In this document: in pieces, positions 2,275 through 53,838 of the stretch
Position numbering within the stretch: position 1 is the first letter of the stretch
Layout of the letters: the number at the start of each line of letters is the position of its first letter
From: Rhizaria sp. SCN 62-66
Taxonomy: Eukaryota
DNA length: 64,000 nucleotides
Reading direction: 5' to 3'
Assembly (NCBI GenBank): GCA_001724265.1
Contig: MEDY01000181.1
Coordinates: forward strand, 1 to 64,000
Notes under the pieces: generated by a model
Told to the model about the DNA's origin: nothing
Databases searched by the model: none
Seen by the model: only the letters and a program-made list of their open reading frames with translations
Translations under genes and position numbers: made by a program

Positions 2275-2601
2275 CGGGCGTTAAGCGGACACCTTCGCCG
2301 ACAGAGGCTGAGTAGAGTAGTTAAGTTTTTCGATCATTAGCGCGTGAGAGTATTAGATTCAGGGTAATTCGTATGCGTAATCAGCTTGAGGATATTTGTT
2401 AATTACTTTAGCGTTTCTTCTTCGGTTCATTCTGAATGTTGTTTAGGTCTATTTCTCTATTTTGTGATGCACACGCGTGAAGGAGATTCATCGGAATGAA
2501 CCGTTCTCATATTGGCTCTTTTCTGTTGTTTTCTGTTTGTAATCAGAGTCGGCACACCTTTTGTTATAGAATACGCACACAACGTACTTGTTGACGTTAT
2601 C

Positions 2602-5136
2602 ATGAGTACGGTCAGCGAGCTTCTGTCGGGGGAAATCCGCCAGAAATTGACAACGACGAGTTCGTTCTCCCACCTCTTCGGCGTCTCCGACTTCTCAGAC
2701 GTCATTGTTGTTGCAGGCGAGGGCATTGATGGGTGCACTCCTCTCCGCATGCCGGCGCACATGTCCGTGTTGACCTCCATGTCCGGGCTTTTCCGCCGCG
2801 CGCTCGACGGCGGCTCCACGACCTCGACTGGCGAGGGCACCGAGCTGCTGCCCCCGGCGGCCGAGTCTGTCATCGCGCGGCTCTACGCCACTGTGCAGGC
2901 GCACGCGCAGACGCACCTCCACGACGACGAGCACGGCTACAGTGCTGTCTCCGCTCCCGCCGCCGCCGCCGCCGCTAAGGCTGCTTCTGCTGGCGCCAAG
3001 GCCGTCGCCACAGGCGCCTCGGGCGCCGACGCCGCTGCCGCTGCCGCTGCCGCCGCCGCCGCCGTCGCTGCCGCAACTGCCGCCGCGGCGACTGCGCGCG
3101 CGAACGCAGACATGCTGACCAAGTCCGCGCGGCTGGAGCTGCTGTTCGAGACGGGCGTGCCGGTGGATGCCTCGCAGGCGGGGCTCTGGGACCTGGACCT
3201 GCTGCTCGACGCCGGTCACGCGCGCGCCGCTGCGGAAGCTGCCGCGGCCGCCGAGAGCGCGGCTGCCGAGCTCCTCGACCGCGGCGCCTTTATCTCCGCT
3301 GCCGTTGCCGCCGCCAATGCCAAGGCCGCCGCTGACGCCGCGCAAAGCCAGGGCCAGACCCAGGGCAGTTTGGCGACGCCGTCCATCCACGCGTACGAGA
3401 CGTCACCGGGACTGTCCGAGGCGGACCTGGAGGCCGCGCGTGCCGCCGTCGCCGCCGCAGGCTCGCGCGCGTACAAGCGTGCCGCGGGCGCCGCTGTGCT
3501 GGCCGCCGTCGCGGCGCTCTCGCCCGCGGCCGTGCTCGCGGTCACCGCGGAGCCCCGGCGCGCCCACGGTCACCCCGCCGCGCCGTGGGCCAAGACGCAC
3601 GCGACGATGCGGCTGCCGCAGCTGCCACCGGCCGTGTTGCCGCTGCTGCTGGCGTGCTTTTACTGCAGCCCGCTGTCGACGTACGGGCCCGACGGCGCGG
3701 CGGCCGCCGCCTCGGGCCGCGCGGCTGCCGCGCTCGAGGAGGCCACACTGACAGCCGCGCTGCTGCTGCCGCTGCTGCGCACGCTCGACGCGCCGCTCAT
3801 CACCGTCGCCGCGCGCGGCCCGCTGCTCTCGGCGCTGTCGCTGCAGACGCTGCCGCTGTACCTCGCGGCGGCCCCGTTCCTGCCCGCGCTGACGGCGCCC
3901 GTGCTGGCATTCGCGCGCGCGCACGCCGAGGCGCTGCTGGGCTCGGCCGCCGTGGAGCGTCTCCCGCCGCGCCTGCTGCGCGCGCTGCTCGAGGATGACC
4001 ATCTCGCGGCTCCCGAGCTCGCCTGCCTCAAGGCGCTGCTGCGCTGGGCCGGCGCGCAGCAGGTCCGCGCCACCATCGCGGCTACTGAGCAGTCGCCGCA
4101 GCAGAACAGCGCGGTGGTCTCTGTGGCGGGGCGGCTGCGCGTGGACGTGTCGCCCGCGGGGCTGGCGCCGCACTTGGCCGCGCTGCTGCCGCTGGTGCGC
4201 TTTGCCGCGCTGGCGCCCGCGGACGTGGCGCAGACGCGGCTGGGCGGTGTCCTCAGCCCCGCCGCGCTCGCTCTCCTCTTCCAGCACCTCGCCTGCGGAG
4301 CCAGTCTTACCAGCGCCAACGCCAGCACCGGCAGCAACACCAGTAGCGTCATCAGCAGCAGCAACAGCAGCAGTGGTGCGAACGGCAGCAGCAGCAGCAG
4401 CGCTGGGAACAGAGCCGGGCGGGGCGGCGCACGGTCTGCACCCGAGCCCTCGCTGGCGGACCGCATGACCGCGGCGGACCACCCGGCCGTGGCGCGCGCC
4501 GTGGCGGCCGCGCTGGCCGCGGACCCGCTGTTCGCGCAGCCCGCCGTGGCCCGCGCGGAGCCCGTCTCTGCACTCGCGCGCGCGCGCCACTTCGCCGCCG
4601 CGGACCCGGGGCTCGCGGTCGCCGCGGCCGCGGGGCCCGCGCTGCCGGTGTCCGCCGCCGCTACCACCGTCGAGACCGGGGCTGCGCACGACCACTCGTC
4701 GTCGTTGTTGTCGTCATTGTCATCCTCGTCGCTGTCGCCGCTGTCGTCGCAGCGCCAAATGCAGTCTTCTGCCTCTGTCGTGGCCGCGCAGTGCGTGGTG
4801 ACACCGGTGCCGATGCCGGCGTCGGCGCTGGCGTCGCTCCTCTACGGCCATCCGCGGCTGCCGCGCGCGCCGCCGGCGCTGAGCGCGGCGCCCGCTGCGG
4901 CCGCGCTGCGCGGGCTCGACGGCTGGGTGCTCGAGACGCGCGCGCGCCTCGTCGCCGCGCTGCCGCCCGCCGCCGCTGCCCAGAGCGCGTTTGCGCCCGC
5001 GCGCGACGCGTTTGCAGACGCCTGGACCGCATTCTCCTCGCAGCAGCAGGAGCAACAACAGGAACACGCACAAGCCCAACCACAGCTGCAGCAGCAGTAC
5101 CAGCAGCATTAGCAGCAGCAGCAGCAAGCGCAGCAT

Positions 5137-5173
<37 letters not shown>

Positions 5174-8100
5174 CCAGCAGCGGCTGGCGCTCTGCCGCAG
5201 GCGCGCGCGGGCGGCTGAGCGCGCCGGGTTGGGGCTGGGACCGCGCGCGCACATCGCACAACGTGCGGCTGGGCGCGGGCGGGCGTGAGGCGTTGGTGTG
5301 GCCCGTGATCCGCGAGAACCAGGCGCAGCACCTGCTGCTGCACCACACGCTGCCGCGGCTCGCGCTCGACTGGTACCCCTACCTCGCGCTGTGCGACTCG
5401 CCCGTGGCGGCCGAAGTCCGCGCCGCCGTGGGGCCCGTCGCGCCGCGCGACGCCGCCGAGATCTCGGCCTACGGCATCCAGTCCACGGCGCCCGCGCGGG
5501 CGGCAACCGCGCGCGCGTCGCCGGGCGAGTGGCTGCAGTGGGAGCAGAGCATTGTGCCCTACGAGCAGCGCATGCTGTGCGGGGTCGAGAAGGCGCGCCC
5601 GCCTCTGGCCGTCACGGCGCACCTCTTCGCCATGGCCTCGCTCGCGCATCTCGTCGGCACGCTGCCCACGGGGACTGCGGCCGAGACCGGGCTGCGGTGC
5701 TGGCGCGTGACGCGGCGCGCGCGCGAGGCGCTGCAGCCGCTGTCACAGTGGTGCGCGCACGTGGGCGTGGCCAACGCGTCCTGGGCGCCGCTGCGCCTCG
5801 GCGCGTGGCGCTTCGCGGGCATGATGAAAGCGCACCTGGACGCGCCCCACAGCGTGCGCGCGCGCATCAACGCCGCCGTGCTCAACCTCGCCGTCGAGGA
5901 CATCCCCGCGCTGCGGGCCGCTATTGCGTAGCGCCGCGCCGCCGACGCCGAGGCCGACGCCGCGATGACTGCGGCGGGGCTCCACGCCTTCCAGCGGCCG
6001 CAGCGCCCGCGGCTCGTGTGGGGCGCGATCGCGACGCAGGCGGCCGAGCTGGGCCACGGGTCCACGCACGTTCTCGCCGAGGCCAAGATGGACTACCTCG
6101 TCGAGGCGCTGGAGCGCGCGTGCGACCACTTGGAGCAGAAGGGCGCATACTCGCGGATTTTCACGCTGTCGGCGCGCTCGCTCACGCGCGCGGAGTAGTC
6201 CGAGATGCTGGGCGTGGCCGAGACCGAGGCCGTGCCGCCGATCGAGGCGCGCACGGCCCTCTTCGGGTTCGCCGGTAACCTCCTCGCCAACGCCGGCGAA
6301 GCCGACGCCGCCGCGGGCGTAGAGGCGATCGCCGCCGCCGCGGGCGCCGCGCACGCCGCGCTGGTCGCGCAGGCCGATCAGGACGCGCGCAACAACGACA
6401 ACGGGGGCGACTCGCAGGACGAGGACGCGGGGGCGGACGCCGAGGCCGAGGCCGAGGCCGAGGCGGCGGCGGGCGCGGCGGGCGTGAACCTGGAGCCAGC
6501 GGGCGCGGCCAGCGCGGCGGTGCGCGCCACGGCGCGGCTGCTGCATCTGACGGCGCAGCAGGCCGTGTCCGTGCACGCCGCGCTCAGCCGCGCCGCCATG
6601 GCCGCCGCTAACAGCAATAACAATAACAATAATAACAATAACAACAACAACAATGCTAACGCGAGGAATCCCGGCCGCCCGCCGCTGACGCCAGCGCAGC
6701 GCGAGGAGCGCCGGGCGCGGCGCCGCGCCGCGCGCCAGAGCAGGATGCGCCCGGACCGGCAGAGCAATCGGCAGTCGCGACTCGAACAGCAGAGCCAGGA
6801 GTACAGCACATCCAGCTCCAGCGGCAGCGAAGTTGACGACGACGACGACAGCGAAGACGAAGCGGAGGCCGCCATTTGCGCCACAACGGCGGTGATGGCC
6901 GCGCGCGCGGCGGACGACAGGAGGCCCGTGGCCACCGCGCTGGCCGCCACCACCGAGGGCTCACTGGCCCGCGCGCGCGCGCTGGCCGCGCTGCAGTGCG
7001 TGCTGCTGCAGTGCCTTGAGCTCGACGTGCACGCCGCGCGCTTCAACGCGGCCCTGGTCGACGAGCTGTTCCGCTGCGTGGCCGCGCTGGAGCGCTGCGG
7101 CGTGCCCGCGGCGCCGCTGTTCGCGCCGCCCGAGGCGCTTCGCGCGCCGCCCGCGGCGGCCGTGACGCTGCTGCACGACCCGCGGCGCGGCGAGCTGCAC
7201 GCCGCCGTGGCCGCGCCCGTGCTGCCGCTATTCGCGCTGCCGCTGATGCGCGTGCTGCAGACCGCGTACCCGCGCCTCGCGTCCTACTCGGCCTCGGCGG
7301 GCGCCGCGCTCGCGCTTATGGACTCGCTCTTTGCATTCGAGGCGCTGCCCGCCGACGCGCTGCCGCGCGCGCAGCACGACGAGGCGCGCCGCCGCGGGCT
7401 GCTGCTCCGCGCACGCGCGCTGCGCACCGCGGCGGGTAAGGCCAACCGCGCGGCCTTCGGCACCTCGCTTGCGCCCTACGCAGGCTTGGGGCTCGCGCTC
7501 GACCCCGCGTTCAGCGCGGTCGCGGCCGCCGAGGCCGGGCTGACGCTACCGCTGGCGCCCGAGGTCGCGGCCGCGCTGCCCGCCGCAGTGCTGCAAGCCG
7601 TCGTGGCGCTGCCCTGCACCGGCACCAGCACCGCCGGCACCGGCGACTCCGGCGGCGCGCCCGCGACGCTGGCCGCGCGCGCGGGGCAGATCGCCGACGC
7701 GCTGCGGTTTGTTTGGGTGCGCGTGCGGCGCGGTGCGGCGCTGGCAACGCTGCGGCTGCCCGAGCGCGCGCTGCCGCTCAAGGCGCTGGACCGCGTGCTG
7801 GGCGCGGCCGCGGACCGCGCCAAGGCCGCCGTGTGGTTCCGCGCACTCGAGGACGCGTACGTCGACGCGATCGTGCACGGTTACGCGTGGCGCGCGCACC
7901 GCGTGTGGGCGCTTGTGCCGCCCGGCGTGCGGCGCGCGGTCGAGCTGGTGACGGCGGCCTACGAGCGCCATGGCGCGCCGCGCGACCGCTTCGTTCCGTT
8001 CGTCGCACACACCGTCAACGAGCGCGACGACGATATCGATGTCGAGACCAGCTACAGCATCGCAGACGTGCCTGTCACCGCGTTCGACGGGTGGGACTGC

Positions 8101-8196
8101 CTCGGGCTCGGCGTCGGCTTTGCATCGGCGGACGCGGCGGCCAATGTGGCTAATTACGCGGCAGCTGATGCGTTTGAGAGCAAGTCGCAGCGCTGA
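2602..8196 (+). CDS. BTB/POZ + BACK domain protein, about 1864 aa when three internal TAG codons are read as sense
   Basis: BTB-like motifs (FSDVIVVAG...PAHMSVLTSMSGLFRRAL; LPQLPPAVLPLLLACFYC) and BACK-like motifs (LPPRLLRALLEDDHLAAPELACLKALLRWA...LLPLVRFAAL). ORFs 2512-5112, 5263-5931, 5965-6198 and 6205-8196 share one frame and are separated only by TAG at 5110, 5929 and 6196. Ends in TGA followed by an AT-rich 3' region. Confidence 0.75.
5041..5172 (+). repeat. Coding (CAG)n poly-glutamine tract containing one TAG codon
   Basis: Reads CAG CAG CAT TAG CAG CAG CAG CAG CAA GCG CAG CAT CAC CAG CAG... at 5101-5172. Confidence 0.9.
6616..6654 (+). repeat. Coding (AAC/AAT)n poly-asparagine tract
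   Basis: Run of AAT/AAC codons inside the BTB/BACK gene. Confidence 0.85.
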
Positions 8197-10357: not shown

Positions 10358-12451
10358 ATGGAGCTTGTGCTCAACGCCTTCCGCTTTAAGTCGACAGGTC
10401 CGTTCTTCCCCCAAACTCCGCTCTCTGGTATTGCTTTGCCTTGTCAGCACTTTTTCACGTTGTATCATTTATTGCTATACACACCAACTTGCTGAAATTG
10501 CTCGCACGCACAGACTACCAGCGTACAATCGACTTCTATCAGGGTGTCCTGAAGATGCCGATTGTACGCCAGCTCGACTCCTCCGCCAAGGTCCGCCTCA
10601 CCTTCCAGTTTCCCCATGACACCGTCGGGCTGCGCTTCTAGTTTGAACGCACTGCCGCAGCTGCCGCAGCTACGAGCGCAGGCTCGGACGCGGGGTTTGA
10701 GACGCTGCCGTCGCTGCCGACCGCGCCGCGCGACTCAGTGTCGCTTCTGCTCTATGTGGCCGCGATGGACCCCGTCGTGGCCCGCGCGCGCGCGATGGGC
10801 TTCGTCGTCTACGTCCCACCAGCGAAGCTCAACCATCTTGTTACATCGTACGTTTTTGCACGCGCTCACGTTGCCTCGCTCTATATACTTCGATGACTTC
10901 TTGCCACACTGATTGAACCGCTCTACCTTGTCAGTCACACTGTTTTAGCTCCCGTTCATCTTACGCGCGCATTACCCCCTCTCTCTTGAACTTGTTTCCC
11001 GATATCTTTAGCGCTGTGGTGCTCGACCCGAACGGACTGCGCGTGCGCCTCATGCAGGTCGATAACCAGCCCATTCTCCCGCCCATCACAACCGCGAGCG
11101 CGACCGCAGGCGGCGCTGATGCCGACTCCCCCAACCCCGGTCACGGGCACAGCCATAGCCGCAGCAGCGGCAGCGCGGTCGCTGGCGATGGCGGCGACGG
11201 CGATGGCGGCTCGCGCGCGCGGGGCCCCACGGCGCGGCTGGGCTACGTGTCGGTGCCCGTGGCGAGCGCGCGGCGCTTCGGCCAGGTCGCGGCCTTCTAC
11301 GACGCACTCGCCCTGCCCGCGCACGCGCGCCCCTCGGCCTCGGCCGCGGCGGCGGCGGCCGGGGGCGCGGGCGCGGCGCTGCCCTTCTCCGCGCTGCCGC
11401 TCACGACGGCCGGCGGCGCGGGCTCCGCTGCGGGCGCGACCTCCAGCATGAGTGCCGGTTCGAGTGCCGGCAGCAGCAGCAGCAGCGTTGGCCGCGCGTC
11501 GCGGCACCTGCGCGAAGTCGATGCGGAGCACGTTGCGGACGCGCTGACCGCCTTCTTGTGGCTTGGCAACGGGCCCCGCGCGCGCCGCCCCGCGCTCTGC
11601 CTCGTCCACAAGGCCACACGATCGGGCACCGGCGCCGCCACCACAGCGCTCTCGTCCGCGGCGGCGGCGTCGACGCCCGCAGCAGCAGCTTTGGGCGACG
11701 GCGAGTCCGGCGCGGGCGCGGGCGCGGGCGGCGAAGACAGCGAGTCTAGCGCGGTGACGGTGGCCGCCGTGTCGCACCCAGTTTTCCTGGGCGTGTCGTG
11801 CCTCGTGCACTCTATCACGGCCGCCGCCGCGCAGCTGCGTACAGTCGAGGGGCTTGCCGGTGCGCGGCTCGAGCCCGCCGCCGCCGCGCACGGGCTGCCG
11901 CGCTGTGTCTCCTTTATTGACCCCGTACGTGACGCCGCTTGCGCTGCTTGTCTTGCTACACTACGATCATTGCCTGACTTGTTTGTTGGTGTTGATTGTG
12001 ATATGTTATCCCGTTTATTGAATGTGTGTTTTATGTAATGCAACTGGCTGTGATATTATTTGTGTATTTCCTGTGTTGTTTTTAAATATCATGTTTGCCT
12101 TTTTATGTCATACTTGTTTTCTTACCCTTATTGTACTTCCTTTAATTACCCACTAAGGCTTCCGTTGCGGTCGAAGTCACCGATGGCGTGCCGTACACGC
12201 CAGCTGCATCAGCGTCCTCTGCCACCGCGGTTGCAGTCGGCGCCGGCTCTTCCTCCGACACAGCGGCTCTGCTTGCCTCTGTTTACGGCCAGAGCATTCA
12301 CGGTCAGAGTCACGGCCACGGTCACGGGACTCCGCGGGGCAGCGCGCCGTCACAGGCGCAGCCACAGCAGCAGCCACAGCAGGCACAGTCGCTTTCATCG
12401 CTGGTGCGATTCGGTCCGACGCCGGAGCCATGGCAGGGCCGCCACGGGTGA
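10358..12451 (+). CDS. Glyoxalase/bleomycin-resistance (VOC) superfamily protein with two VOC-like domains; exons 10358-10397, 10514-10847, 11012-11924, 12158-12451; one internal TAG
   Basis: Spliced translation gives TDYQRTIDFYQGVLKMP...VGLRF*FER...SLLLYVAAMDPVVARARAMGF...AVVLDPNGLRVRL, then a second unit RLGYVSVPV...VAAFY...SFIDP|ASVAVEV. TAG at 10639-10641; stop TGA. Confidence 0.75.
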
Positions 12452-16218: not shown

Positions 16219-19200
16219 ATGCTCCGTGCCGGCGCGCTGACCGCAGCCGCGCGCATTAGGACCCTTGCCGCCCCTCTGTTTCTGCCACGCCTTGCAACCG
16301 TGCTCTCATGCCCGCCCCGGCGCACGCTTTCCGTCTCTGCCGCCACGCACGGTGTCTCAACCGCGACTGCGGCTGCGGACTCGGGCGCGGTGGCCGCGGC
16401 CCGCGCGCGGCTGCCGCTGCTTTTCAACTCGTGGGACGACCCTTTTGTGGTGGTGTACAAGCCCGCTGGGCTGGCCATGCAGCTGCGCGGCGACCTGCCC
16501 GCCGGCCAGCCCTCGGCCGCAGTCAACGCCGACGCTAACGCTTGTGACGCCAACGCTAACGCTTGTGACGCCGATGCTCACGCTTGCGACGCCGACGTCG
16601 ACGCTGACGACGCTGACGCTGAGGTGGGCGTGGAAGCCGCGGGCCGCGGCGTCCAACCGTCAGTGATGTCTCTCGCGCGGTTACTCGCGGGATCCGCGCG
16701 GCCTGTGTACCTTGTGCACCGGCTGGACAAACACACCGCGGGGGCGCTCGTGCTCGCGCTGCACCGCGCGGCGGCCTCGGAGCTGCAGGGCTCGGTGCAG
16801 CGGTCCGCCACGCTGAATACAGCACAGGATGAGTTAAATATAGCACAGGATGAGCTCTGCGCCGCAGAGGAAGCCGCTGCAGAGCAAGCTGTTAGTGCAC
16901 AAGAGGATGCCATTTCAGATGCAAAGACAGACGCTGCAGCGGCGGAAATGGGGCCGTCAGCGGTGCTGCGGGCGCAAAAGAGCGCGGCGCGGCGCGCGCT
17001 GCGCTCTGTGCTCGACCGCGGCGCGCCCTGGGTCAAACGGTACGCGGCTCGCTTCGAACAGTACAAAGCGATATATATTATACCGGTGAGCCCAATATAA
17101 TGTATTTTAGCTGTTGTGCTTTCCGGAGGTCTTCTAACATTGTAACTTTTGTTTTAACTCGATTGCGCTCAATTTCTATAGGTACCGCATCGTGGTCGAC
17201 TTGCCGCCCTGTGTGCAAGCAGGGTTACAGCCACAGAACCACCACAGCAGTCGCAACCGCTGGCCACACCCGTTGTCTGCGCTTGTTTCGCCCCACCTGG
17301 GCGGTACCGGCCTCTTCGCCGTCCAGTCACTGCGCGACAGCGATAGGGCCGCCGTCGCCCCCGGTCAGAGCCAGAGCGGCGCCGCTGTGGAGCGCGTGCT
17401 GCTGCGGTAGGGCGCGCTGGCGACGTGGACGCTGCGGCGGCCGCTGTTTCCGCCCGCGCTGCTCGCGCACATCCCCGTCGTGCCCACTGGAGCCAGCGCT
17501 AGCGCGGGAACGGGATCAGAGACCGGCGCTGCGGACCCGCCTGCAGACACGGTGCTGACGGCGGCGCAGGGCTGGCGTGTCACACTGCCAACCAGCGGTG
17601 CTATCAACCCAGTGACATCGACAGCGCCAGTGACAACAGTTGCGGCGCCTGCCTCGATGGCCGAGTCTTCTGCCGCCGCGCTGTTCTCCGGCGACACCGT
17701 GCCTCCAGGTGCGTGGGCAGAAAAATCGCTCGCGCTAGGACCCGCCGTGCGCGCGCGCGCTCAAGCCGCGGCGCGTCGCCGGCTGCCCTGGGCATGGGCT
17801 AACGCCCGCCTTGGCTCCGATGACGTCAACGCTGTAGATACTGCGCAGACAGTTGATACACCAGAGCAAAATGGGAGCAGCTCACTCGTGCTCGATGTGC
17901 CGGGCGCTGCAACGCTCTGTGCGCCTGTGCCGGTCGCCGCGCAACCGGGCGCTTCGTTGGCCGTTGCGAACGACTTTGCCGTGCTTGCCGGTGCGCTGCC
18001 GCTGTCCGCTGCAGTGACCCCGGTTGACAGCGTCGCACTGGCAGAACGTGTTTCAAGCGCGCTGCGGGCGCGCTAGCGGCTTGCAGTGGGCGACGAAGCG
18101 TCTGCGGTCACGCCCCCACCACAGCAAGGACCAGGCGTCGCAGGTGCGCAAGAGAGCGGAACCGGCGTGGTTGCGCTGCGCTCGCCATGGGGCGCACACC
18201 GGCTGTTGCTGCAGCCCGACGCTGAGGCTGAGGCCGCGGACGGCCGCCGGTGGCGCGCGGGCCGCTTTCTGCGCTATGCCGCGCTGCCCTGCGGCTGCGC
18301 GCTGCCCCACCGCGCCGCCGCTGCGGGCGTACATGCGCGCGACTTCCGCCCCGACGACTCGCCGCGCTCTCTATCTTTCCACAAGGAGAGCAAGATCCTC
18401 GACACGCTTGGTGTCGAGGACGCGAGTGCGAGCGCGAGCGCGAGTGCGCAGTACAGCGCCGAGGCGCTGGCGCCGCGGTTTGCGCTGCACCCGTTCGTGC
18501 CGGAGCACATCCTGTTCGAGTCCGCGCCGGCGGGCAGCGCGACGCACGAGCTCAAGCCGCTGGCACCGGACCGCGCTGGCGGCGCGGCGGGGCGGCCGCC
18601 GGCGGTGTTCACGGCCGTGCGCGCCCGCGCCCGGCGCGCGCTGACGACGTTCCGCCTCGAAGGGCTCGCTCGCGGCGGTACGGCGGCGGTGTACACGGCG
18701 CAACTGGGCACGGGCCGTACCCACCAGCTGCGCGTGCACTTCGCAGACGCGGGGCTGCCAATCCGCGGCGACCCATACTACAACCGCCCGCTCGTCGCCG
18801 CATGGGCTGAAGCGGTGCTATCCGCCGCCGCCGCCGCTGATGATGATGATAAGGGGGCTGAGGGCGCCGACAAAGCTGTGTCGCCGTCACCGCAACCGCA
18901 GTTGCTGCTGGAATCGGAACTGCATTTGCAGGCGTACTTCTTGCAGTTTCCGCTCCCGCGCCGTGCGCTCGCCGACGCCTTGGAAAACGAGGCCGACAGC
19001 GCCGACGCCAACGCCAACGCTCACGGTGACGGTTCGATGCAACGCGGAGACCTTGGCCGCAGCGCGGTACCGAACGGCAGCGACCCGCTGGTGCGACTCA
19101 TTCCCGTTGCCAACACCGACAGCAGCAGGCACAGTGCCACAATTGCGGCCCGGTGGACAGAGGCGCCTCTACCGGGCCCGCCCGCGCTCGCGCCGGGCCG

Positions 19201-19939
19201 TCTGGGCGCGGGCTCACGCGGGCGGCGTGTGGCTGAGCACGGCGCGCTGCTGGCCACCCTTGCGCGCGTCGCAAATGCAGCCGCCTTTACCGCCCCTGAT
19301 CACCACGCAGCCTCTCCGCAGCAGACCGCGGCCGTCACAGGGCTGCCGGTGTGGCTGCGCGCGCGTGAGCCCTGGACTGCGGTGGCGCACGAGACTGTCG
19401 GGTCCGACGCCGCTGCGCTGTTGGCGCGCGTGTTGCGCGAAAAACCGCTGGTCGCGCCGGTGCGCACGGTCGGCGACGCCTCCGCGCTGCTGGCGCGGTG
19501 CATCGCCGCGGACAAGCCGGCGATCAAGGCGCTGACGGGCGCGTTCTTCCGCGCGCTGCACCGCCACTCTGCCGCCGCCGCAACCGCCGCCACCGGTGCG
19601 GCAGGCGCAGGCGCGGGCGCGGGCGCGGGCGCAGAGGCGCCGCGTGCGCGCGTGCGGTTGTGGTGGAACGAGCCCGACTCCGGCGGCGACGACCTGGGAC
19701 GCTACGAGACTGACTCTGCGGACGCGAGTGCGAACGCTTCCGGCGAGCCTCCGGAGCAGCACCCGCTGGGATTCACGAAGGTGCGGCGCGTGGATGGCGC
19801 CGGTGCGGCCGCTGTGGGCGCGAAGGTGTGGCGCTTTGAGAGCGACGCGGGCGTGGAGCTCGTGCGCATTGTGCTGCCGCCGCCAGAGCGCTGGGGCGTC
19901 GCCGTCGAGCAAGCCTCGCAAGCGGCGCAAGTGGTGTGA
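16219..19939 (+). CDS. RluA-family RNA pseudouridine synthase, probably organelle-targeted; exons 16219-17039 and 17182-19939; two internal TAG codons
   Basis: Motif I VVYKPAGL, catalytic motif II YLVHRLDKHTAGALVLA, KRYRIVV across the splice junction, motif III LGTGRTHQLRVHFADAGLPIRGDPYY, and LHLQAYFLQFP. Exon 2 is one frame broken only by TAG at 17408 and 18074. The N-terminus is Arg/Ala/Leu-rich like a transit peptide. Stop TGA. Confidence 0.85.
16531..16614 (+). repeat. Coding 21-bp tandem repeat, about 4 degenerate copies (DANACDA/NANACDA/DAHACDA/DVDADDA)
   Basis: gacgctaacgcttgtgacgcc aacgctaacgcttgtgacgcc gatgctcacgcttgcgacgcc gacgtcgacgctgacgacgct. Confidence 0.8.
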
Positions 19940-26125: not shown

Positions 26126-29100
26126 GCAGCGAGGCCGCGGCCGCGGACTCCGCGGCGGTGGCGCTGGTGCTGCTGGCTTGCCAGGCCGCCGTCGGCTGCG
26201 GCGTTGCGGCGACGGTCCCCGCCACGCCGGCCGACGCCGTCGCACTTGCGCGCGCGCTGCTGCCGCCCGTGGCGACTGCGACAATTGCGGCAAGCCACGC
26301 TGTCGCTGACGGCGATGATGCGGCTGCTGTGACTAAGGCGCACGCCTCTGTGTACGCTGCTGAGGCCGGCGCGTGCTCAGGGTTTCAGCAGCAGGCGCGC
26401 ATGGAGACGCTCCGCTCCACGTCATCCGCAGCTGTCACCAAGTCTAGCGGCGGCGTTGCCCTGACAGCAGTTGCCTCTGCGGAGACTGCGCTGTGCGCAC
26501 AGGCTGCCGTCGCCGCGGGTGCGCGCGCTCTCGAGCGCGGCCGCCACGGCGCGCTGCCTTTTTTTACCACCATCTCTGTTCCCCACAGCAGCAGTCACAG
26601 CAAGGCTTCTATGAGCGCTGCGCAGAGCGCGAGCTCCGGCGTCGTCAGCGCCTGCGCGGGCACGCGCGGTGCTAGCAGTGGCAGTGTGTGGGTGTGCGGC
26701 GGCGTGGACAGGGACCGCGACTGCGACCGCGAGCGCGGCGGCGAAGCTGAGGCCAACGCCGCCGCGGCCGCCGCTGCAGCCACGGCGGCCGCGGCGGCAG
26801 ACGGCGGCGGCAGCGGCTGCGACCATGACGGCGCCGATAGCAATAGCAACACTAACACGAGCGCGAACGCGAACGGCGCCAGCGCGAGCGACGGCGTCCC
26901 CGCTGCTGACGCGGCTGCTGCGGCAGCGACGACCACGGCGACAGCGACTGGGGGGGCGGCTGTAACTGCGGGTGCGAACACGCGCACCGCGAGTGGTGGC
27001 GCCGCCGGTGGCGGTGACGGCGCGATCGGACAGGGCGCATACGGCCGCGTGTTCAAATCCTCACTGCCCGCCGCATTCGACACTGCAACTGCTGCTGCTG
27101 CCGCCCCCAGTGTCAGTGACAGCAACAGCAATTGCAGCAGCGCGAGCGGTGCGGACCGCGTGACCGTGGCTGTGAAGCTGGTGCCGCAGATGCCCGACGG
27201 CGCGTCGCTGCTGCTCATTCGCGAAGCCCGCCTGCTACGCTTGTTGTCCCGCTACCAGCACCGCCGCACCGCCGCTGCCGCCGCACCGGTCCACGGCATT
27301 GCTTCGACTGCAACTGCGGCCGTGAGCGGTGACAGCGGGGAGCCCGGCGCGACGGTGGCGCTGCTGCAGTGCGGCGTGGATACGAGCACCGCGGCCGCGG
27401 CGGCCGCCGCGCTGCGCACGGCCGCGCGTGCCGCGAGTGCTGGTCTCGATCCCGCCGTCCCGACCACTAATAAGACCGCGGACGCCGCCAGTGGTGCTCG
27501 AACCGCTGCTGCGAGTGCGGCGGCGAGCGCGACGCGGAGTGCGAGTGAGATTGCGACACTGGCCGACCGCGCTGTCGCCGACGCGCTGCGCCCGCTGCGG
27601 CCGCCCTCGAAGCGATCACGCCACGCCAGCGCCAGCCCCAGCGCAAGTGACAGCGTGAGCGCGTGGGTGTGTCCGCCGACGGGGCTACTGCTGGCTCAGG
27701 CGCAGCGTGGCGGCGAGGATGTCGCGAGCCTGGCCAGCGCGGAGGCCGTGGCCGCCGCGGTGGCCACCGCCGCCTGCGCCTCGCTGCTCGAGCCAGCGTG
27801 CCCGCTCGCCGCGCACTGGGCGGCGCACTGCAGCAGCAGCATTAGCAGCGACAAGAGCCAGTGTGATGACGATAGCAAGGGTGCCGATGCTGCTGCAGCG
27901 AACGCTATTGCGACCGCGAATGCAGCGCCTCAGTTTTCGTCGCTGACGCTGTCGTCTGCGCTGCCCGCGCGCGCCCCGCTGGCATTGTCGTTCCGCTTTG
28001 CGCACTACGACCTGGCGGGTCTGCTGCACGCGCCGGCGCCTGCGGGCCCGTTCCTGCCGTTCGCGCTGACCAAGTACCTGTGCTGGGCGCTGCTGCGCGC
28101 GCTGGCGGGCTGCCACGCGCGCGGCGTCTGGCACCGCGACGTTAAGGCCGCCAACGTGCTCGTCTCGCGCGCAGGCGCCGTCGCGCTCGCCGATCTGGGG
28201 CTGTCGCGCGCCGTGCCCTCGTGCGCAGAGGCCTCCGCGGCCGTCGCGCGCGCGGGGCTGACGAACCGCGTCGTCACACTGTGGTACCGCGCGCCGGAGC
28301 TACTGCTCGGCGCGGCCCGGTATGACGGCGCCGCGGTCGACGTGTGGGCCGCGGCGTGCGTGCTGATGGAGCTGCTTAACGGAGGGAACGTCTTCCGCGG
28401 CGGCGGCGGCGCGGGTGCCGAGGTCGAGCAGTTGGGCAAAGTCTTTGCGCTCTGCGGGTCACCGACTGCCGAGTCCTGGCCAGAGCTCGCCACTGTCTGG
28501 GTACGTAACAATCCATGCTTTATTCCTTCATATGTACAGTATCTGAATAATGTCGTGTTGAATTGTGTTTTTAAATCGTTGTTCCCTCAAAATTCTAATC
28601 TTTCGTGTATCTTTCATTGTTTTGTGTTGCTTCTCATCTCTTCAATGTACGCTACCACAGGACCCTGCGAGCCTGCGTGTGGGTATGCACTGCTCACGGC
28701 AACTGCACAACCTCTTCCGCATCGTCCCCGCCGCCGCGATGCGCGCGCAGCCCTTTGCCTCCGCCCCCGGAGGCGTCTTCTACCCCACCTCGGCCCCGCG
28801 CCCCCTCGAGCTGCCTTCCGTCTCGGCTACAGCCTCACACTCAGCCTCCGCCTCTGCGGTGCCCGTGCTGCCCCCGCACATCACGCTCCCGCCCCCCGGC
28901 CCCGCCAGCGGCCACGGCGCAGCGGACGCGGCCGGCTCCGGTGGACTGTGCGCGGCGGGCATTGCGGACCCGCGCGCCATGGCGACCCCGCAGGCGTTGG
29001 CGCTGCTCGAGGCCTGTCTCACACTGCGGCCCAAGGCGCGGCCCTCGGCGGCGGCACTGCTGGGGCACGCGTTCTTCACGCAGGAGGAGCCGGTGCTGCC

Positions 29101-32795: not shown

Positions 32796-33703
32796 ATGGT
32801 ACGCCTAACGCCAGAAACTCTCCCGCGCGCTCTCTCAGTCTTAACTGCTCCCTTTGGTGATCTTCAGCACACTCACAAAACTTCTCTCTTTTTCTTCACT
32901 GTCACTTCTCTTTGCCCTCGACACCCCCGCTTCTGCCTCAACGCCACAGTTCCTCGTTAGTTGGTTCTGGAACACGCTTAACTACCTCGGTCTGTCCAAG
33001 AAGTCCGCCCGCATCCTATTCGTCGGCCTCGACAACGCGGGCAAGACGACGCTGCTGCACATGCTGCGCGACGACAAGCTGCTGCTGCACGAGCCCACCC
33101 GCCACCCGCAGGCCGAGGAGCTGGTCATCGGCAACATCCGCTTCGACGCCTACGACATGGGCGGCCACCAGGCCGCGCGTCGTCTCTGGGCGCAGTACCT
33201 CGCCGGCGCCGACGGGCTCATCTTCCTCGTCGACGCTGTCGATGAGGCTCGGTACGCTACATTATCACACATATACCGCGATGTATTCGTGCATTTGCTC
33301 TCAACAAAGTGAAATTGTTATGATGTGTATTTCTCTCTAAGATTCGTACAAGTTCACTCTCGTTATTTCCTCATCGCGTTTTTTTTTTCTTCTCTTTCCT
33401 TTTTTTTTTTTTTTTCTTCTGACCCACAGCTTCGCCGAGGCCAAGACTGAGCTCGAAAGCCTGATGTCCGAGCCCGCTCTGGGCAACGTCCCGATTGCGC
33501 TGCTGGGCAACAAGATCGACATCAAGGGCGCGTACACTGACGTCCAGCTCACGCAGTCGCTCGGCCTCACTGAGCAGCTCACCGGCAAGGCTGCGAAGCC
33601 TGTGCCCGAGGGCACGCGTCCTATGGAGATGTTTATGTGCTCCATCGTCAAGCGCTCCGGCTACCAGGACGCCTTCAAGTGGCTCGCCAACTACCTCCCG
33701 TAA
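32796..33703 (+). CDS. SAR1: Small GTPase SAR1 (COPII); exons 32796-32798 (ATG only), 32950-33251, 33430-33703
   Basis: MFLVSWFWNTLNYLGL, GLDNAGKTTLLHML, PTRHP, DMGGHQAARRLW, LGNKID, RPMEMFMCSIVKRSGYQDAFKWL; GTACGC donors; stop TAA. Confidence 0.95.
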
Positions 33704-36072: not shown

Positions 36073-36535
36073 GGGGACAGTCGCACTGTCACTTAATGCA
36101 CTTGACCATGAGTGAACACTGAGTGGGGCCGGGGGATTTCTTTACAATAGTTTTAACATTGACTCCAACTAATATAATACACTAGATTAAAACAGTTTAT
36201 TTTATCTTGCTGTAACATTTTTCATCTTGAAGTGTGAACATTGCGAGTTTATATCCGCGCTACTCTGTCAGACACTGGTCAGATGACAAACAGTGGCCAA
36301 CGACTGCGAAAGTCATCTCGTCTCGGCTTCGCAAATTTGACTTATACTGAATGACTGTGATCGTCAAATCGAAATACAACGACTGAGTGGAAATTAAATG
36401 TGCATTTAACGCTATATAACTTATTTGTTTCTCATATAATTCAGGTGTACATCATATCTCACCGATCTGCGGCGCTCTCGGTCTCCCCAATATTGCCTCT
36501 TCAAACCGCGTACAGGTCGGACGCGCCTCACACCA

Positions 36536-39500
36536 ATGCGCTCCACCCTTCAACGCTTAGCAGGCGTTCCCTCGGCGATACTGCCGACGTCGGCACTGGC
36601 GAACAGCACTTCTGATGTCGGCCCCGCGCTTCCCCAGACGCAACCCGCCCGGAGCTTCGGCGCTACCTCCGCCTCCGCGTCTGCATCTGCATTCGCGTCA
36701 CATAACAATGCGTCCACAGTGACCGCGGGCCCCGCGTTTATCTCGCGTCCCGCCGCGCTTGCAGCTTTGCCAACCACAACATCAGCGGCGTTCACTGCGA
36801 GCTCAACAAGCCTCGCTGGCTCTGTATTATTGGTGCCGCAGCGCGGTGCCGCCTACGGGGCTGGCAAAGACCGCCGCGGCGGCAGCGGCGGGCGCGTCTC
36901 GGACAAGGTTCCGCCCCGTGGCCACACGCAGCCGCTGACGCCGCGCGCCCGCTTTGACGTCAACGCGCACAGCAAGCGGCAGCAACAACAACAGCAAGGC
37001 GAGAAGCAGCCGCAGCCGCAGTCGGGCGCCCGCTCGGTGGACGTGGACGCAGCCGAGGCAGACGCCGCGCAGTTCGACGCCGTCGTTGCCAACGCCGTGC
37101 CTCTTGACGCGCGTCGCACCAACTCGAACATCAAATCTAGAAAGGGCCGGAGCGACGGCAACGACAGCGACGCCGACGTCGACGTTGCCTACATGCAGCC
37201 CGCGGCCGTGCCGCCTCTGGCCGTCGCGTTGGCGACGCTCTTCCGCGCGCTCTCCGCGCCGTCACTGCCGCCGGTCTCGGCGCGCGCCAAGTCGGAGCGC
37301 GACATCTTCGACGCGCTCGAACACGCCCGCGTCGCGCGCAGCCAAGGGCTGCTGGGCAAGGCGCGCTCGCTGGTGATGAACGCGCTCGACGCCGCGACGG
37401 CCGCGCAGACGCGCTTCATCGACGGGCTTGGCCGTGCCGCTGCGAACGAGGAGCACGCTCGCACGCGTGCGCTCCAGAGCTGGCGTGAGAGCTTCGACGC
37501 CGCGCTGGAACAACTCGCGCGCGCCGAGCTGCCCGGTGCGGCCGAGACCGCCTCCGCCTTTCCGCGCGCGCCGCCCATGCCGCCCGCGGCGCCGCAGCGC
37601 GCGGTGACGGCGGCGGCGACGGCGAAGCTGGCGCGCGCGTGGGGCGTGACGCTGCCGACGCCGCAGCTGTGGGCCGCGGCCGACACGTGCATCGCCGACG
37701 GCGCGCCGCAGGACGTCAACGCCGCCGTGCGTTATCTCCGGCTGCAGGCGCGCGCGCACGCGCTGGCGCTCGCCGCCGCGTCGCCGCCCGCGCCCGCGGA
37801 GCTCGAGGAATACGCCGCCGCCGCGAGGGAATACAACGACGCCGTGGCGCGCTACGAGGCGCTACGGCTTGCACGCGGCGCGCCGCACCAGGGCGCGCAC
37901 CCGCCGCGGCTCATGCCCGAGTCCGCGCTGGCGACCAGTAGCGCCAGTATCAGCAGCGCGGACGGCGAGACCCCGCTTGACTCGCCCGAGGCTGTGGCGG
38001 TGCGCGCGAGCGCGGACTTGACCTCGGCCGGACTGGTGTACCTGACGGCCGCGGCGGCGCGGCGCGGCGCGCTGGACGTGGCCGTGACACTGCTGGACGA
38101 GCTGTTCCCACCGCCCGCCGTGCCGCACCGCTCGCTGCTGACGTACGTGGCGCAGCACGCGGCGCGCGCGCTCGACTACGGCGCTGCTGCGGCGCTGCTG
38201 CGCGTGCTCGAAGCGCGCGGCGAGACTGCGCCGCCGCAGTGGCCCGCGGCCGGAATGGCCGACGCGCTGCTGCAGCGCGTGCGCGCGGACGTGCTCGCCG
38301 CGGAGCGCGCGCGCGCCCGGTCTGCGCAGCGCGCGGCCGCCGCCGTCACGCACGCGCAAAGCGCCGCGGCGCGCGCCGAAGAGGAGGCCGACGCACATGC
38401 CAAGAAGGCCGCCGCCAAGGCCGCGCAGGGCGCTGGCTCGGACGACAAGAGCCAGAGCAGTAGTAACGGCAGCGGCAAGAAGTCAAAGAAAGCAGCCGCA
38501 GCTGCCGCTGCTGAGGCCGCGGAGGCCGCCGAGGCTGTGGAGGGTCACGCATGGGGCGTAGTGCTCGCCGAGGCCTCCGCGCCGACCGCACCTGCGCAGT
38601 CGTTCCGCGCGGCCGTGGAGAGCGTGAGCGCGCACTTGGGCCCCGCGGCGCGGCGTGTGGACCCCACGCCCTTCGTCGACGTCGTCGCCGCCGAGGCCGG
38701 GTATCTGTTCCCGGGCGAGCCCGCGCCCGTGGGCGTCGCGCCGGAGGCCGCGGCAGCGGCGGCGGCGGCGGCAGCCGCGCAGCGCGGCGCGTGGGGCCGC
38801 GAGGCCCTGGCGCTGCTTTGCCGCGTCGAGACGCTGTCGCAGGCGTACTGGCCACAGCCGGCGACAGAGGTCACGGCGCCCGCGCTGCTGCGGCCCGGGA
38901 TCTACGCGCCCGCGCCGCTGCCGGCGTCCGCGCGCGCGACCAACGCCGCGGGCCGCGACGCACTGTCGCGCGCGGTGATCTGGGCCACGCCGATGCTGAC
39001 GGAGGCGCTGTACCTGTCGACGCTGCGCACGCTCGTCGAGGCCAACGCGCCGCTGTCGTACGCGTTCGCCGTGCTGCAGCGCCTCGTTGACTCCGCCGCC
39101 GCGTACGCCGCGCTCAACGAGACGGATCCCTCTGGGGCGGATCCCTCGGCGACATCTCACGCGGACGCGGCGGACGAGGCGTCGCCCTCGAGTTCTTCTC
39201 GCGCGCTGGTGGCGGTGCGCGTGCCTGTGGTGCCGACGGCGGAACACTTCGCGGCGGTGATGACGCTGTGCAGGCAGCACGGCGCGTGGGACGCCGCGAT
39301 GGCGCTCTTCGTCGCGATGGACAGCGGCATGCGCCAACTGCTGCCCTCTACGCCGTTGCCACCGACGTCTGTGGAGGACGATGCCGCGAAGAGGTCGGCT
39401 AATCTGCAGCGACAACAACCGCAGATGCCGCCACAGCAGTTGCAGCAGGCGGTGCTCTGGGGCGAGGGCTCCGGCGCGGCGGCACTGTCGCAGGCCCTGA

Positions 39501-42500
39501 TCGAGCGGCACACGTACATCGTGCGCCCCGCGACCTTCGGCAACGCGTTGCTCAACGTCAACTCCGCGGCACGCGCGCTCGCCGCCACGCAGTGCGCCAC
39601 GCACTCCGCAGACTCACGGCCGCAGTTGGCGCCGGCGTCGGCGAGTGCGGTTGCGTTTGTAGCGCAGCCTCAGCTGTATTCGGTCGCTAAGTCGCCCACC
39701 GTGCTGTCGCTGGCGATCGAGGCGTGCCACCACTTGTCGCTGCCGTCGCTATCGTACGCGCTCACCGTCGCGCTTAAGTCCGCCGTCGTGGCCGAGAAAG
39801 CGCTGCTGGCGCGCCGCACGCTCGAGGCCGACTTGGCCGCCGCGGTGCGCGCTGTGGACCGCCGCTTGGTGTCCTCGCACGGCGGTCACCACACGCCCAC
39901 ACGTGGACTCGGCTCACGCAACAACAACAAAAGCCGCGGTTGTCGCACGGATGACGTCGACGCCGATCACGCTGAGGACGACGAAGACGTGGACATGACG
40001 CCGATGCGCGTGGTGCTGGTGACTGACAGGGCGCTCTTGGCGCCGGATGGCGTGGTGCTGCGCCCCGGCACCTCCACGTCAATCTCCCGCGGCACAGCGC
40101 GCTTGCTCGCGCATCTCGACGGGATTTACCGCGCGCGCTTGCTGGTGCCCGTGTGCACGGTCCAGGCACTGCCGCACGTGGTGAGCTCGCAGCCCGCGAT
40201 CCGGAATCACAGCTTCGCCATTCCTGGGTCCGCTTCACGCGCGGTGGCTCCCGCGACTGCGGCGCCTGTGATGGGGTCGACCACATTTGCACTCAACTCG
40301 CCCGTGCGCTTCCTTGTCATCGAGGCCGTGCTGAGCCAGCTGCAGGCCAACTGGCGCCGTCTGCGCTCGCATGCGCGCACTATTGCGCAGCTCACTGGCC
40401 GGCTTGCTGCCGACGTCAACGACGCCGTGACGGCTTCGCAAGCCGTGGCCGCTGGCACGGCGGATCCTGCGACAGTGCGCGCGGCGGCGACACTTGTGTT
40501 GGTTCCGGGCCCCGCGGGCGGACCCGCGCGCGTGGCCGTTGCGGCCGTCAACGCAGACACGCTGCTTGATGCACTGCGCATTGATAACCACATCTTCGAC
40601 AACCGCGGCGTGCGCCCTTCGCTGCGCAGCCCGAACTCGCCCCCCGTGGCGTCGGCCTACGTTGATGCAGAGGACGACAGCTCGCTGCCGAGCATCGGAC
40701 TTAACACCGCCGACGCGGATAACAGCATCAGTGATGACGCCGACACCGACGCCGCGCGCGCCGTCAACGCGTTTGCGGAGCCGCGCGCTGCGGCAGCACG
40801 AATTGCGGCTGCTCGAAGCATCGCGCAGCGCCGCAGTGGCCGCGGAAACGTTCACACTATCGACACTGAGGCAGTGTTGATTGAAGAGGCGAGCGCCGAC
40901 GCTGAGGCCGACCGTGCCGCTGCGACCGCGCATTCTGCCGCCGAGAGCCCCGACGCGAGCGCCAGTGCCGCCGACCCGTTTGCGGGCACGCTGGCCGCTG
41001 AAGGCAGCGCGGACGCGTATGCAGCCGCGGATTCTGCCGCGCGCAGTGGCGACAGCCCGTGCATGCCGTCAATGGCACAGTGGTTGGCGCAGGCCGCGGC
41101 ATCCGAGGCCAGCGCGCGCGCGCAGCAGCGGCCGCCCACGATGGGCGCCGAGGACCTGTCCGCCGCCGTGACCGCCGCGCTGTCCGCAGGCGGGCGCTCT
41201 TCCCGCGCGCCGCAGGCCAACGCGCACCACGGCGGGACGCGGCACGCGGGCTCGGGCACGTGGGTGGACGCGCGGGGCCGCACGCGCCGCGCCCCGCGCG
41301 CGCTGTGGACGCAGCAGTCGATGCTCAACACTCTACTGCGCGACGCCGTGGTGAGCCGCGCACAGCGCGCGCGCGCGCTTGACGAGGACGCCTCGACGGT
41401 CGAGGAGCTCGCGCTCGACGCGCAACTCGCCACGGCGCTGCGCTTTGCCGTCGCCACGTGGGGCGTGCGCCGCGGGCTCGAAGCGAGCGTTGTCACGGCC
41501 TTTGTCATGTTCCGCGCGCTGCTGGCTAACTTTAACGCCGCGTTCGCCGCGACGGCTGGGCTAGCGCCACAGGACACGCTTGCGCAGCGGCTCCCGCTGC
41601 AGCCGCGCGTGTACTACGCCGGCCGCCGCGGCGCGCTGCTGGCGCACGTGGGGCCGCAGTTCGTGCTCTCGGTCGCGCCAGTCACGCTCGCGGCCGTGCG
41701 CGCCGCTGTGTCGCTGAGCGACTTTGCGCTGGTGCATCACGCGCTGACCAAGCTCGACTCGTTCCTCGTCAGCCACCCGGAGTTGAGCAACAACGCGATC
41801 TTCGCGAACCCGCGCGCGGCGGCGGTCCCGCCCTCGGAGCTGGCCGCCGCCGCCGCCACGGCGCGCATTGACCGCAGCTTCATTACTGTTGATGCTGGCG
41901 GCGCACGGTCCGTGCGCGGTGCGCAGAGCACCACGCTCTCGCCGATGCCGCCCGCGGCTGCGCGCTTTAAGGCGCTTTGGATCAGCGCCGCGCCTACCAG
42001 TGCGGTCGCCACTGATGCTAATGTCATTCCATCCGCTAATCCCAGGCTTCCGGCTTATCCCAGTCTATTGTCGGCGGTGGGTTTCGCGCCTTTCCCGTCC
42101 ATGCAGCGCGTGACGCAGATGCCGCAGGCGGTGCCGATGCCGTCCGCTGCCGCTGCAGCAGTGACAGCGTCCACTGCCGCCGCGGCGGGGTCGGCGTTGA
42201 TGCTGCCGTCGCGGCCGTGGCGCGACCTGTCCGTGCCGCTGGCGCCGTGGGAGCGCCCCACGTCGGCGGTGCTGGAGGCGCTGTGGACGCTGCGCCGCGA
42301 GGCGTACGTCGAAGCCATCGCGGGCTGCGCTGGCGAGCGCGTGAACTCGGACGCCGACGCGGGCTCGCTTGCTGTGCTATACTTCACCGAGATGCGCGTC
42401 AACGCGATGCTCTACGCGCAGCGCGTGGACCACACGCACCAGGTCCGCACGTTTAACTTCCTCAACAAGAACACCGTGGACAACCCGCGTTTGCTGACCT

Positions 42501-53241: not shown

Positions 53242-53838
53242 CTACGCGGGGAGAAACCAGGAGGGACAAGATCGACGGATCGAGCAAGATTGGGATACGG
53301 GAGAGTGAGATTTAAGAGCAAGACGCGTGGAAGCAAGACAATTTGACAGGTTTAAACGACGAAATCACACTGGTGCAGACGAGACACACTGGTACAGAAA
53401 ACATTGCAAGGTGGGTATAGCTGTCAAGACGCAGAAATGCAGTAGTTCAGTGGTTAATTGGTTTGAGCGTGCCACTGGTGGCAGCCTCTCTGGTGCGCGC
53501 GAGAGGTCTCCGTCAGAGACTCGACAAAAATGAATTTAGACGTACAAAAGCTTGCTGAACATGGTCAGATGGGTTCCCTTTTAGTTAGCGATGCGGTCGC
53601 CTTCTGTTGGAGCAACAAACTCCCACCACTGGACGCGTGCTCTGGCTTCTCGCTCATCGTGCGGTGGTGGTCGACCGATGTGTTCGTAAAAAATCGATGG
53701 TCCTTCCGTCCGCGGTCGACCGCGCCACCGAAAGGTCATGTGCAAAGGCTGACTTTGCGGCTTGTGCGACGCTTCAACTAGCCGTGGTTTAGATCCAAGC
53801 ACCCTTGTTGTTTTTGGACGTTGAGTGCACTTTTTAGA

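Follow-up and report, generated by a model that had tools for sequence, protein, structure and literature searches.

The enzymes of the RluA family of pseudouridine synthases share a single-domain core that carries motif I, the HRLD motif with its catalytic Asp, K-x-Y and motif III. Nuclear codes in which UAG alone has been reassigned are, to our knowledge, known from a handful of lineages. Here, we describe an RluA-family gene whose reading frame contains two TAG codons, at 17408 (TAG1) and 18074 (TAG2), within a stretch of 64,000 nucleotides (the window: positions 1 to 64,000 of the forward strand of contig MEDY01000181.1, assembly GCA_001724265.1, Rhizaria sp. SCN 62-66). Our analysis of the sequence indicates that both TAGs are probably best explained by UAG being read as sense.

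In published reports, Iotanema spirale reads UAG as Gln and the rhizarian exLh reads it as Leu, both keeping UAA as a stop (Panek et al. 2017, PMC5304391; PMC9161772). UAG codons are described there as scarce in I. spirale (PMC5304391), and UAG alone is given as reassigned in several phyllopharyngean ciliates (PMC11687900). As far as these accounts describe such codes, the window resembles them in having in-frame UAG within conserved coding sequence, UAA and UGA as terminators, and few UAG codons. Compared with these lineages, the genome represented in the window is GC-rich (coding GC 0.65-0.78, against 0.4-0.5 in the spacers) and has rare, AT-rich introns that begin with GTACG. Searches of the open-access literature yielded no account of UAG-only reassignment together with GTACG introns in a GC-rich eukaryote.

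Like RluA, RluC and RluD of E. coli and human RPUSD4, the gene in the window has motif I, HRLD, K-x-Y, G-R-T-H-Q-x-R-x-H and a final L-x-A-x-x-L strand, and the structural match of a close-family homologue (P0016) to RluD, RluC and RluA suggests that the fold is shared as well. Unlike the RluA enzymes in the Protein Data Bank (PDB), in which the distance from K-x-Y to motif III is several-fold shorter, the window's gene has 510 residues between KRY and motif III, far more than its homologues, and both TAGs lie inside this interval. The protein also adds C-x-C and HPFVPE blocks, a domain at the C terminus that spans about 300 residues and the two UAGs themselves. It is further like a eukaryotic subfamily (including P0016 with 394 aa, P0011, P0012, P0013, P0019 and P0086) in carrying W-x-K-R-Y-R-x-V-x-x-P-x-C, VSPH, G-x-L-x-S-W-L-x-RRPP, C-x-C, HPFVPE-x-x-L-x-ES, motif III with DPYYN, LQAY-x-L-x-FP and a terminal P-x-x-W. 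It differs from the subfamily in being the longest copy between the strand segment that we call block C and the C-x-C block, at about 280 residues compared with about 25-75. The subfamily members were compared as proteins, so that in-frame TAGs are visible for the window copy only.

The RluA-type fold is shared, too, with the trypanosomatid mt-LAF3 (PDB 6yxx_EC, 7aoi_XP and 7am2_BZ), a pseudouridine-synthase-like mitoribosome assembly factor seen in structures of mitochondrial large-subunit intermediates. mt-LAF3 matched the family profile weakly (E 2e-4 to 6e-4) and the P0016 model clearly by fold (E 1e-11 to 5e-9). It is much less similar than RluD, RluC or RluA, and nothing marks the window's protein as its orthologue.

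Judged from its sequence, the locus is a single two-exon gene of the RluA family and would belong to a eukaryote-wide subfamily with large loop insertions. Calling open reading frames (ORFs) with the standard code cuts it into four pieces, 16219-17100, 17192-17410, 17480-18076 and 18086-19939. Its features are as follows:

16219-17039, forward strand: exon 1, starting with the ATG at 16219, with a PF00849 match and PDB matches, colinear with P0011
16441-16470, forward strand: motif I, PFVVVYKPAG, in exon 1
16717-16743, forward strand: motif II, HRLDKHTAG, with the catalytic Asp, in exon 1
17035-17037 (K), 17038-17039 plus 17182 (R) and 17183-17185 (Y), forward strand: KRY, straddling the splice junction
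17040-17181, forward strand: spliceosomal GT-AG intron of 142 nt, GTACGC...TATAG, GC 0.39, with a frame shift of +1
17182-19939, forward strand: exon 2, with 918 sense codons, two in-frame TAGs and the terminal TGA at 19937-19939
17279-17317, forward strand: block B, ALVSPHLGGTGLF, conserved in the family alignment, upstream of TAG1
17408-17410, forward strand: TAG1, codon 350 of the spliced coding sequence, aligned with S150 of P0016
17411-17443, forward strand: block C, GALATWTLRRP, family-conserved and predicted from the alignment and the P0016 model to be a core beta-strand
17444-18283, forward strand: lineage-specific insertion rich in Ala, Pro and Val, from block C to the C-x-C block, containing TAG2
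18074-18076, forward strand: TAG2, codon 572 of the spliced coding sequence
18284-18529, forward strand: family-specific blocks LPCGCALPH (18284-18310) and HPFVPEHILFESAP (18488-18529), matched by BLASTP to P0008 (E 4e-28) and P0011 (E 2e-16)
18638-18958, forward strand: C-terminal half of the catalytic core, including the ALTTFRL strand
18707-18739, forward strand: motif III, GTGRTHQLRVH, in exon 2 and in the frame of both TAGs
18767-18784, forward strand: GDPYYN, in exon 2 and in the frame of both TAGs
18920-18958, forward strand: LHLQAYFLQFPLP, within the C-terminal half of the core
19037-19936, forward strand: C-terminal extension domain, ending VWRFE...VRIVLPPPERW, a terminal motif shared with P0008

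The exon 1 frame and the TAG-bearing frame are joined by the intron at 17040-17181. The spliced product reads WVKRY followed by RIVVDLPPCVQAG across the junction, compared with WHKTYRLVVDHPPCVAEAG in P0016 and WTKRYR... in P0011 and P0013, and the homologues thus agree with the splice; the unspliced frame would give KRYAARFEQ, which is unlike them. The ORF 16219-17100 has an AT-rich tail and differs in frame from the TAG-bearing ORF. The spliced coding sequence comprises 1192 sense codons, and motif I, HRLD, K-x-Y and motif III are all colinear in it, forming one polypeptide only if both TAGs are translated. The initial annotation had placed both TAGs in one frame, as we found: they are the only stops of that frame between 17138 and its terminal TGA (19937-19939), and its 934 codons include neither a TAA nor a further TGA. 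Its start of the locus at 17182 proved to be the first base of exon 2, and its placing of motif III and GDPYY downstream in the TAG frame also stood. It had rightly put motifs I, II and KRY upstream of the TAGs, but motifs I and II lie outside the interval it gave (17182 to 18790) and in another frame, which the intron joins to that of the TAGs. The Arg/Ala-rich N-terminal leader of exon 1 may be an organelle-targeting peptide.

PF00849 matched the upstream piece over profile positions 2-69 of 152 (E 2.4e-7, 31.5 bits, cut-off 26.8). Searches of the PDB led from the N-terminal part to RPUSD4 and RluC and from the C-terminal part to RluD and RluA. HRLDKHTAG aligns with HRLDKET and HRLDRDT of RPUSD4 and RluC, and a profile made from the subfamily alignment matched RluD with E 1.8e-26. 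With exon 2 as the query, translated with TAG as Q, an exhaustive HMMER search returned 262 proteins at E <= 0.001, whereas a word-indexed homologue search with the same query returned none, its 8000 candidates probably being swamped by low-complexity words. The top four proteins, P0003-P0006, are 99-100% identical to the query and represent pieces of the same locus, matching 17192-19936 of the window. P0006 stops at TAG1, P0005 stops at TAG2 and P0004 begins just past TAG2; therefore, public predictions made with the standard code split the synthase gene at its TAGs. Some of these entries begin with a GTG read as Met, and P0003 and P0004 carry short non-matching ends.

P0007, a relative, has 46% identity over the C-terminal ~290 residues (query residues 619-909). 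The matches further include a eukaryotic subfamily comprising P0008-P0016, P0019, P0026, P0028, P0047, P0064, P0086, P0103 and others. Full-length members carry all the motifs on one chain and have long variable insertions too. P0011 (1068 aa) has motif I at 67, HRLD at 101 and KRY at 136-142; its HPF block and motif III occupy 326-479, and the last strand follows at 977-994, about 500 residues separating motif III from that strand. P0016 and P0013 are likewise whole single chains, and the order of their motifs matches the two halves in the window. This agrees with the initial claim that the motifs belong in one chain and are all intact. On the family alignment (A1), an AlphaFold model of P0016, which is the homologue and not the window's protein, had a mean pLDDT of 72.4 and a pTM of 0.73, and Foldseek matched it to RluD, RluC and RluA with E 1.7e-14 and TM 0.73-0.78 on target length. 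The window's protein is predicted to be a functional pseudouridine synthase. The label of a housekeeping-type gene, given to it earlier, may be appropriate.

The subfamily insertion that separates the KxY strand from the HPFVPE block has conserved Cys and His residues (P-x-C after KRYR, CC-x-VSPH and C-x-C), which hints at metal binding. The window copy, in which the corresponding segments are 17200-17224 and 18284-18310, lacks the CC pair of CC-x-VSPH. Two GC-rich relatives of the synthase, P0007 and P0014, are fragments that begin inside the gene, P0014 about 26 residues before the C-x-C block; these starts could reflect in-frame TAGs in related organisms.

Support for the translation of TAG1 is strong and comes from the family alignment, which included 18 retrieved proteins with a K-x-Y-R motif together with the spliced product. 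Fifteen of the proteins align in block C; outside these are P0036 and P0051, which are ordinary RluA-type proteins, and P0011, which is gapped in this region. TAG1 is the codon directly preceding the Gly of block C (family pattern G-x-L-x-S/T-W...RRP), and this Gly is present in 14 of the 15 aligned members. G151 and S155 (P0016 numbering) are nearly invariant in A1. In the P0016 model, block C forms a strand at 150-159 with a pLDDT of 86, and S150, the first residue of the strand, lies opposite TAG1. The TAG1 column itself is variable among the 15 homologues (S in five, E in four, T and A in two each, I and K in one each), and therefore does not reveal the encoded residue. Our first guess for the G-x-I strand had been SATHELKPLAPDR; it was abandoned, since the family alignment gives that role to block C.

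The insertion around TAG2 has no homologue outside the organism's own fragments in the HMMER search (exon 2 query residues 1-300); therefore, the evidence on TAG2 is compositional. From 17411 to 18073 the sequence shows 3-periodicity, with G-rich first and C-rich second positions as in the rest of the gene (chi-squared p = 5.7e-10). The codon log-odds score of this stretch is +0.10 in the gene frame, compared with -0.48 and -0.35 for the two remaining forward frames and -0.01 for the best reverse frame, and none of 2000 shuffles reached the observed value. The gene frame scores highest of the six across the stretch and in nearly all 150-nt windows, and the coding signal persists to the TGA at 19937. 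Moreover, between 17183 and 18076 the gene frame contains only the two TAGs, whereas the other five frames contain 2-5 TGA or TAA codons each (mean 3.6), a difference that exceeds chance. Support for the translation of TAG2 is thus good but indirect. With block C adjoining TAG1 and a coding signal around TAG2, the earlier proposal that both TAGs need decoding for a complete enzyme is supported.

The initial annotation had regarded the gene as independent support for TAG recoding, and six more in-frame TAGs in three other genes point the same way. In total, the window has eight among about 14,715 coding codons, distributed over four genes (5110, 5929, 6196, 10639, 17408, 18074, 59449 and 60643). 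TAG 5110 interrupts a run of CAG (poly-Gln) codons. TAG 10639 is residue 84 of the ORF 10390-10847 (forward strand) and falls within a PF00903 Glyoxalase/VOC match (residues 38-137, E 8.5e-5). TAG 59449 lies just before GQLYLYGG in a Kelch-repeat ORF. Besides TAG1, no TAG falls in an alignable conserved column. For the glyoxalase-like ORF, a word-indexed homologue search found nothing and a PDB search found only spurious matches to designed TPR proteins; with no usable homologue, the residue at its TAG cannot be read from a conserved column. All 15 gene ends placed in the window, a small sample, use TAA (9) or TGA (6), and none uses TAG.

An unbiased scan treated the three stop codons alike. 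A site counted if the 60 codons to its left and to its right were free of other stops and if, on each side, the coding score was highest in the frame of the stop. The scan returned eight TAGs (six in sense genes and two antisense), four TGAs (all antisense to stop-free genes) and no TAA. The scan favours TAG even though TGA triplets are 2.5 times commoner overall. TAGs 5110 and 18074 fell below its score threshold.

Further TAGs were noted near other genes. In the stretch 53559-53837 (forward strand), which is of intermediate GC, TAGs at 53586, 53790 and 53835 lie in frame upstream of the start of the eIF-2B ORF at 53838; this stretch may be either a 5' UTR or an extension of the N terminus translated through TAG. 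A possibly coding ORF on the reverse strand (1-1965) runs past the window start; towards its 5' end, shortly before the standard-code ORF 1-1725 begins, it has in-frame TAGs at 1935, 1776 and 1728.

We consider it likely that UAG is read as sense in the synthase. The ribosome would read both UAGs as an amino acid and produce one polypeptide of about 1192 residues, in which the N-terminal half (motifs I and II and the KxY strand) and the C-terminal half (the block C strand, motif III and the final strand) end in one chain. On this reading, both UAGs are decoded because the organism treats UAG as sense genome-wide and terminates at UAA and UGA. Such decoding may involve a cognate or efficient suppressor tRNA and an altered release factor, and continued translation through the synthase TAGs is the predicted outcome. 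Gln is the lead candidate for the inserted residue; it is suggested by the CAG-run context and by a weak pairwise alignment in which P0011 has a Q opposite TAG1, an alignment that is partly circular because the query already coded TAG as Q.

Several observations weigh against this explanation. Because the codon usage is rich in GC3, TAG would account for about 66% of random nonsense mutations, and therefore the finding that eight of eight in-frame stops are TAG gives, alone, a p of only about 0.035-0.04. The match of PF00849 to the downstream piece (profile 110-151, E 1e-3, 19.8 bits) is by itself below the cut-off of 26.8. The 222 codons between the TAGs match only fragments of their own locus by HMMER, and GC3 in this stretch is 0.67, compared with 0.78-0.82 elsewhere in the synthase gene. 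In the 40 codons past TAG2 there is no frame preference (-0.22 vs -0.17). The density of TAG here, two per 298 codons, far exceeds the average of the window and is close to that of the other frames of the stretch, which carry 1-3 TAGs. Frame-preserving GT-AG pairs with a GTGCG start also exist across TAG2 (for example 17919-18086, GC about 0.70). No eRF1 gene was seen in the window, and a tRNA scan of the window found no tRNA gene and hence no CUA anticodon. Lastly, six of the eight in-frame TAGs are followed by C or T, a context known to be leaky.

This context, together with the rarity of TAG in coding sequence and the lack of a CUA tRNA (in a window with zero tRNA genes), would also fit an organism in which UAG is still a stop and near-cognate tRNAs allow low or moderate, context-dependent read-through without full reassignment. 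We regard this as unlikely. Genes with two or three TAGs, namely the synthase, the ORF 2500-8196 and the Kelch ORF, would then probably give very little full-length product at ordinary read-through rates, none of the 15 placed gene ends uses TAG, and the eight sites have no common downstream motif.

Splicing is the next alternative: one or more unusual introns could excise the TAG-bearing stretches, leaving an mRNA with no in-frame TAG and the standard code intact. Spliceosomal introns do exist in the organism, and seven were recognised in the window:

10848-11011, forward strand: recognised intron
17040-17181, forward strand: recognised intron, that of the synthase gene
28501-28660, forward strand: recognised intron
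33252-33429, forward strand: recognised intron, in the Arf gene
57924-58122, forward strand: recognised intron
21691-21542, reverse strand: recognised intron
20935-20797, reverse strand: recognised intron

All seven start with GTACG, the next base being T, C or A, and end in YAG; their lengths range over 139-199 nt and their GC over 0.32-0.48. The GTACG start is an unusually strict 5' splice-site signature, which could be of use in recognising the lineage. The Arf intron is confirmed by its flanking exons, which match the Arf profile at 3-99 and 96-173. The excess length of the interval from KRY to motif III over that in homologues, the frame-keeping GT..YAG pairs around TAG2, the lack of a homologue for its surroundings and the fact that both TAGs can formally be read as YAG acceptor ends are all compatible with splicing. 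However, GTACG is absent from 17183-18677, and all GT..YAG candidates that span a TAG with a 5' end at most one mismatch from GTACG have a GC of 0.67-0.76. Every listed candidate that removes TAG1 also deletes block C (17411-17443), and an intron ending at TAG1 itself would need an unrelated 5' end and a GC-rich body unlike any intron in the window. Two large introns were considered and rejected: 17408-18076 starts with TA, has a GC of 0.69 against 0.32-0.48 in the seven introns and would delete block C, and 17407-18076, with 670 nt, would disrupt the reading frame. Across the stretch, codon periodicity in the gene frame is strong, and TAA and TGA are absent. Finally, splicing here would leave unexplained the six further in-frame TAGs, which are spread over three other genes and of which one interrupts a CAG repeat. 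We therefore judge this alternative to be quite improbable.

That the gene is a recent pseudogene, or that its product is cut short at about 350 residues, its TAGs being true nonsense mutations, is highly improbable: the presence of two nonsense-type codons in one gene, the status of TAG as the commonest nonsense mutation expected here and the fast evolution of the region would fit it, but the 1192 codons are free of frameshift, TAA and TGA, every catalytic motif is intact, the coding signal runs on to the terminal TGA, and the C-terminal domain is conserved with P0007. The TAG pattern also recurs in three other genes whose domains are intact, so that about 20 genes would have to include four pseudogenes.

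The other TAG-bearing genes and the neighbourhood can be described briefly. The ORF 2500-8196 (forward strand, 1898 codons), which holds TAGs 5110, 5929 and 6196, has a weak BACK-domain match and poly-Asn and poly-Ala tracts. The region 58123-64000 (forward strand), with TAGs 59449 and 60643, encodes a large multi-Kelch protein that also has Cys-rich stretches resembling EGF and continues past the window end; an upstream exon before the intron 57924-58122 is likely. The genes of this GC-rich eukaryotic region further include those for a kinesin, an eIF-2B subunit, a protein kinase, Kelch, RING, Arf, Mob1, v-SNARE, cystatin and RNase T2 proteins. An ORF of 3578 codons (36440-47176, forward strand) has a strong coding signal, no in-frame stops of any kind and a terminal TAA, and a Pfam search with it gave no match. 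An Rfam scan of the window gave no match.

Taken together, the gene and its probable decoding fall within known kinds, an RluA-family synthase and a code with UAG as sense. Each independent case of UAG-only reassignment informs how stop codons get captured, and the synthase offers a clean test case, in which a well-understood single-domain core would stay unassembled unless two UAGs are decoded, one of them abutting a conserved strand. Standard-code gene callers shatter such genes, and annotation of this genome would need a variant code and a GTACG intron model. We tentatively suggest that the host may be a GC-rich, intron-poor eukaryote outside the described UAG-reassigned lineages, in which UAG has recently been taken up as a sense codon, probably for Gln, that makes up about 0.05% of codons, while UAA and UGA still terminate. 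If so, the synthase would be among the first genes found to rely on this new code, and its TAGs, one beside a core strand and one in a fast-evolving insertion, would provide a snapshot of a freed codon re-entering genes.

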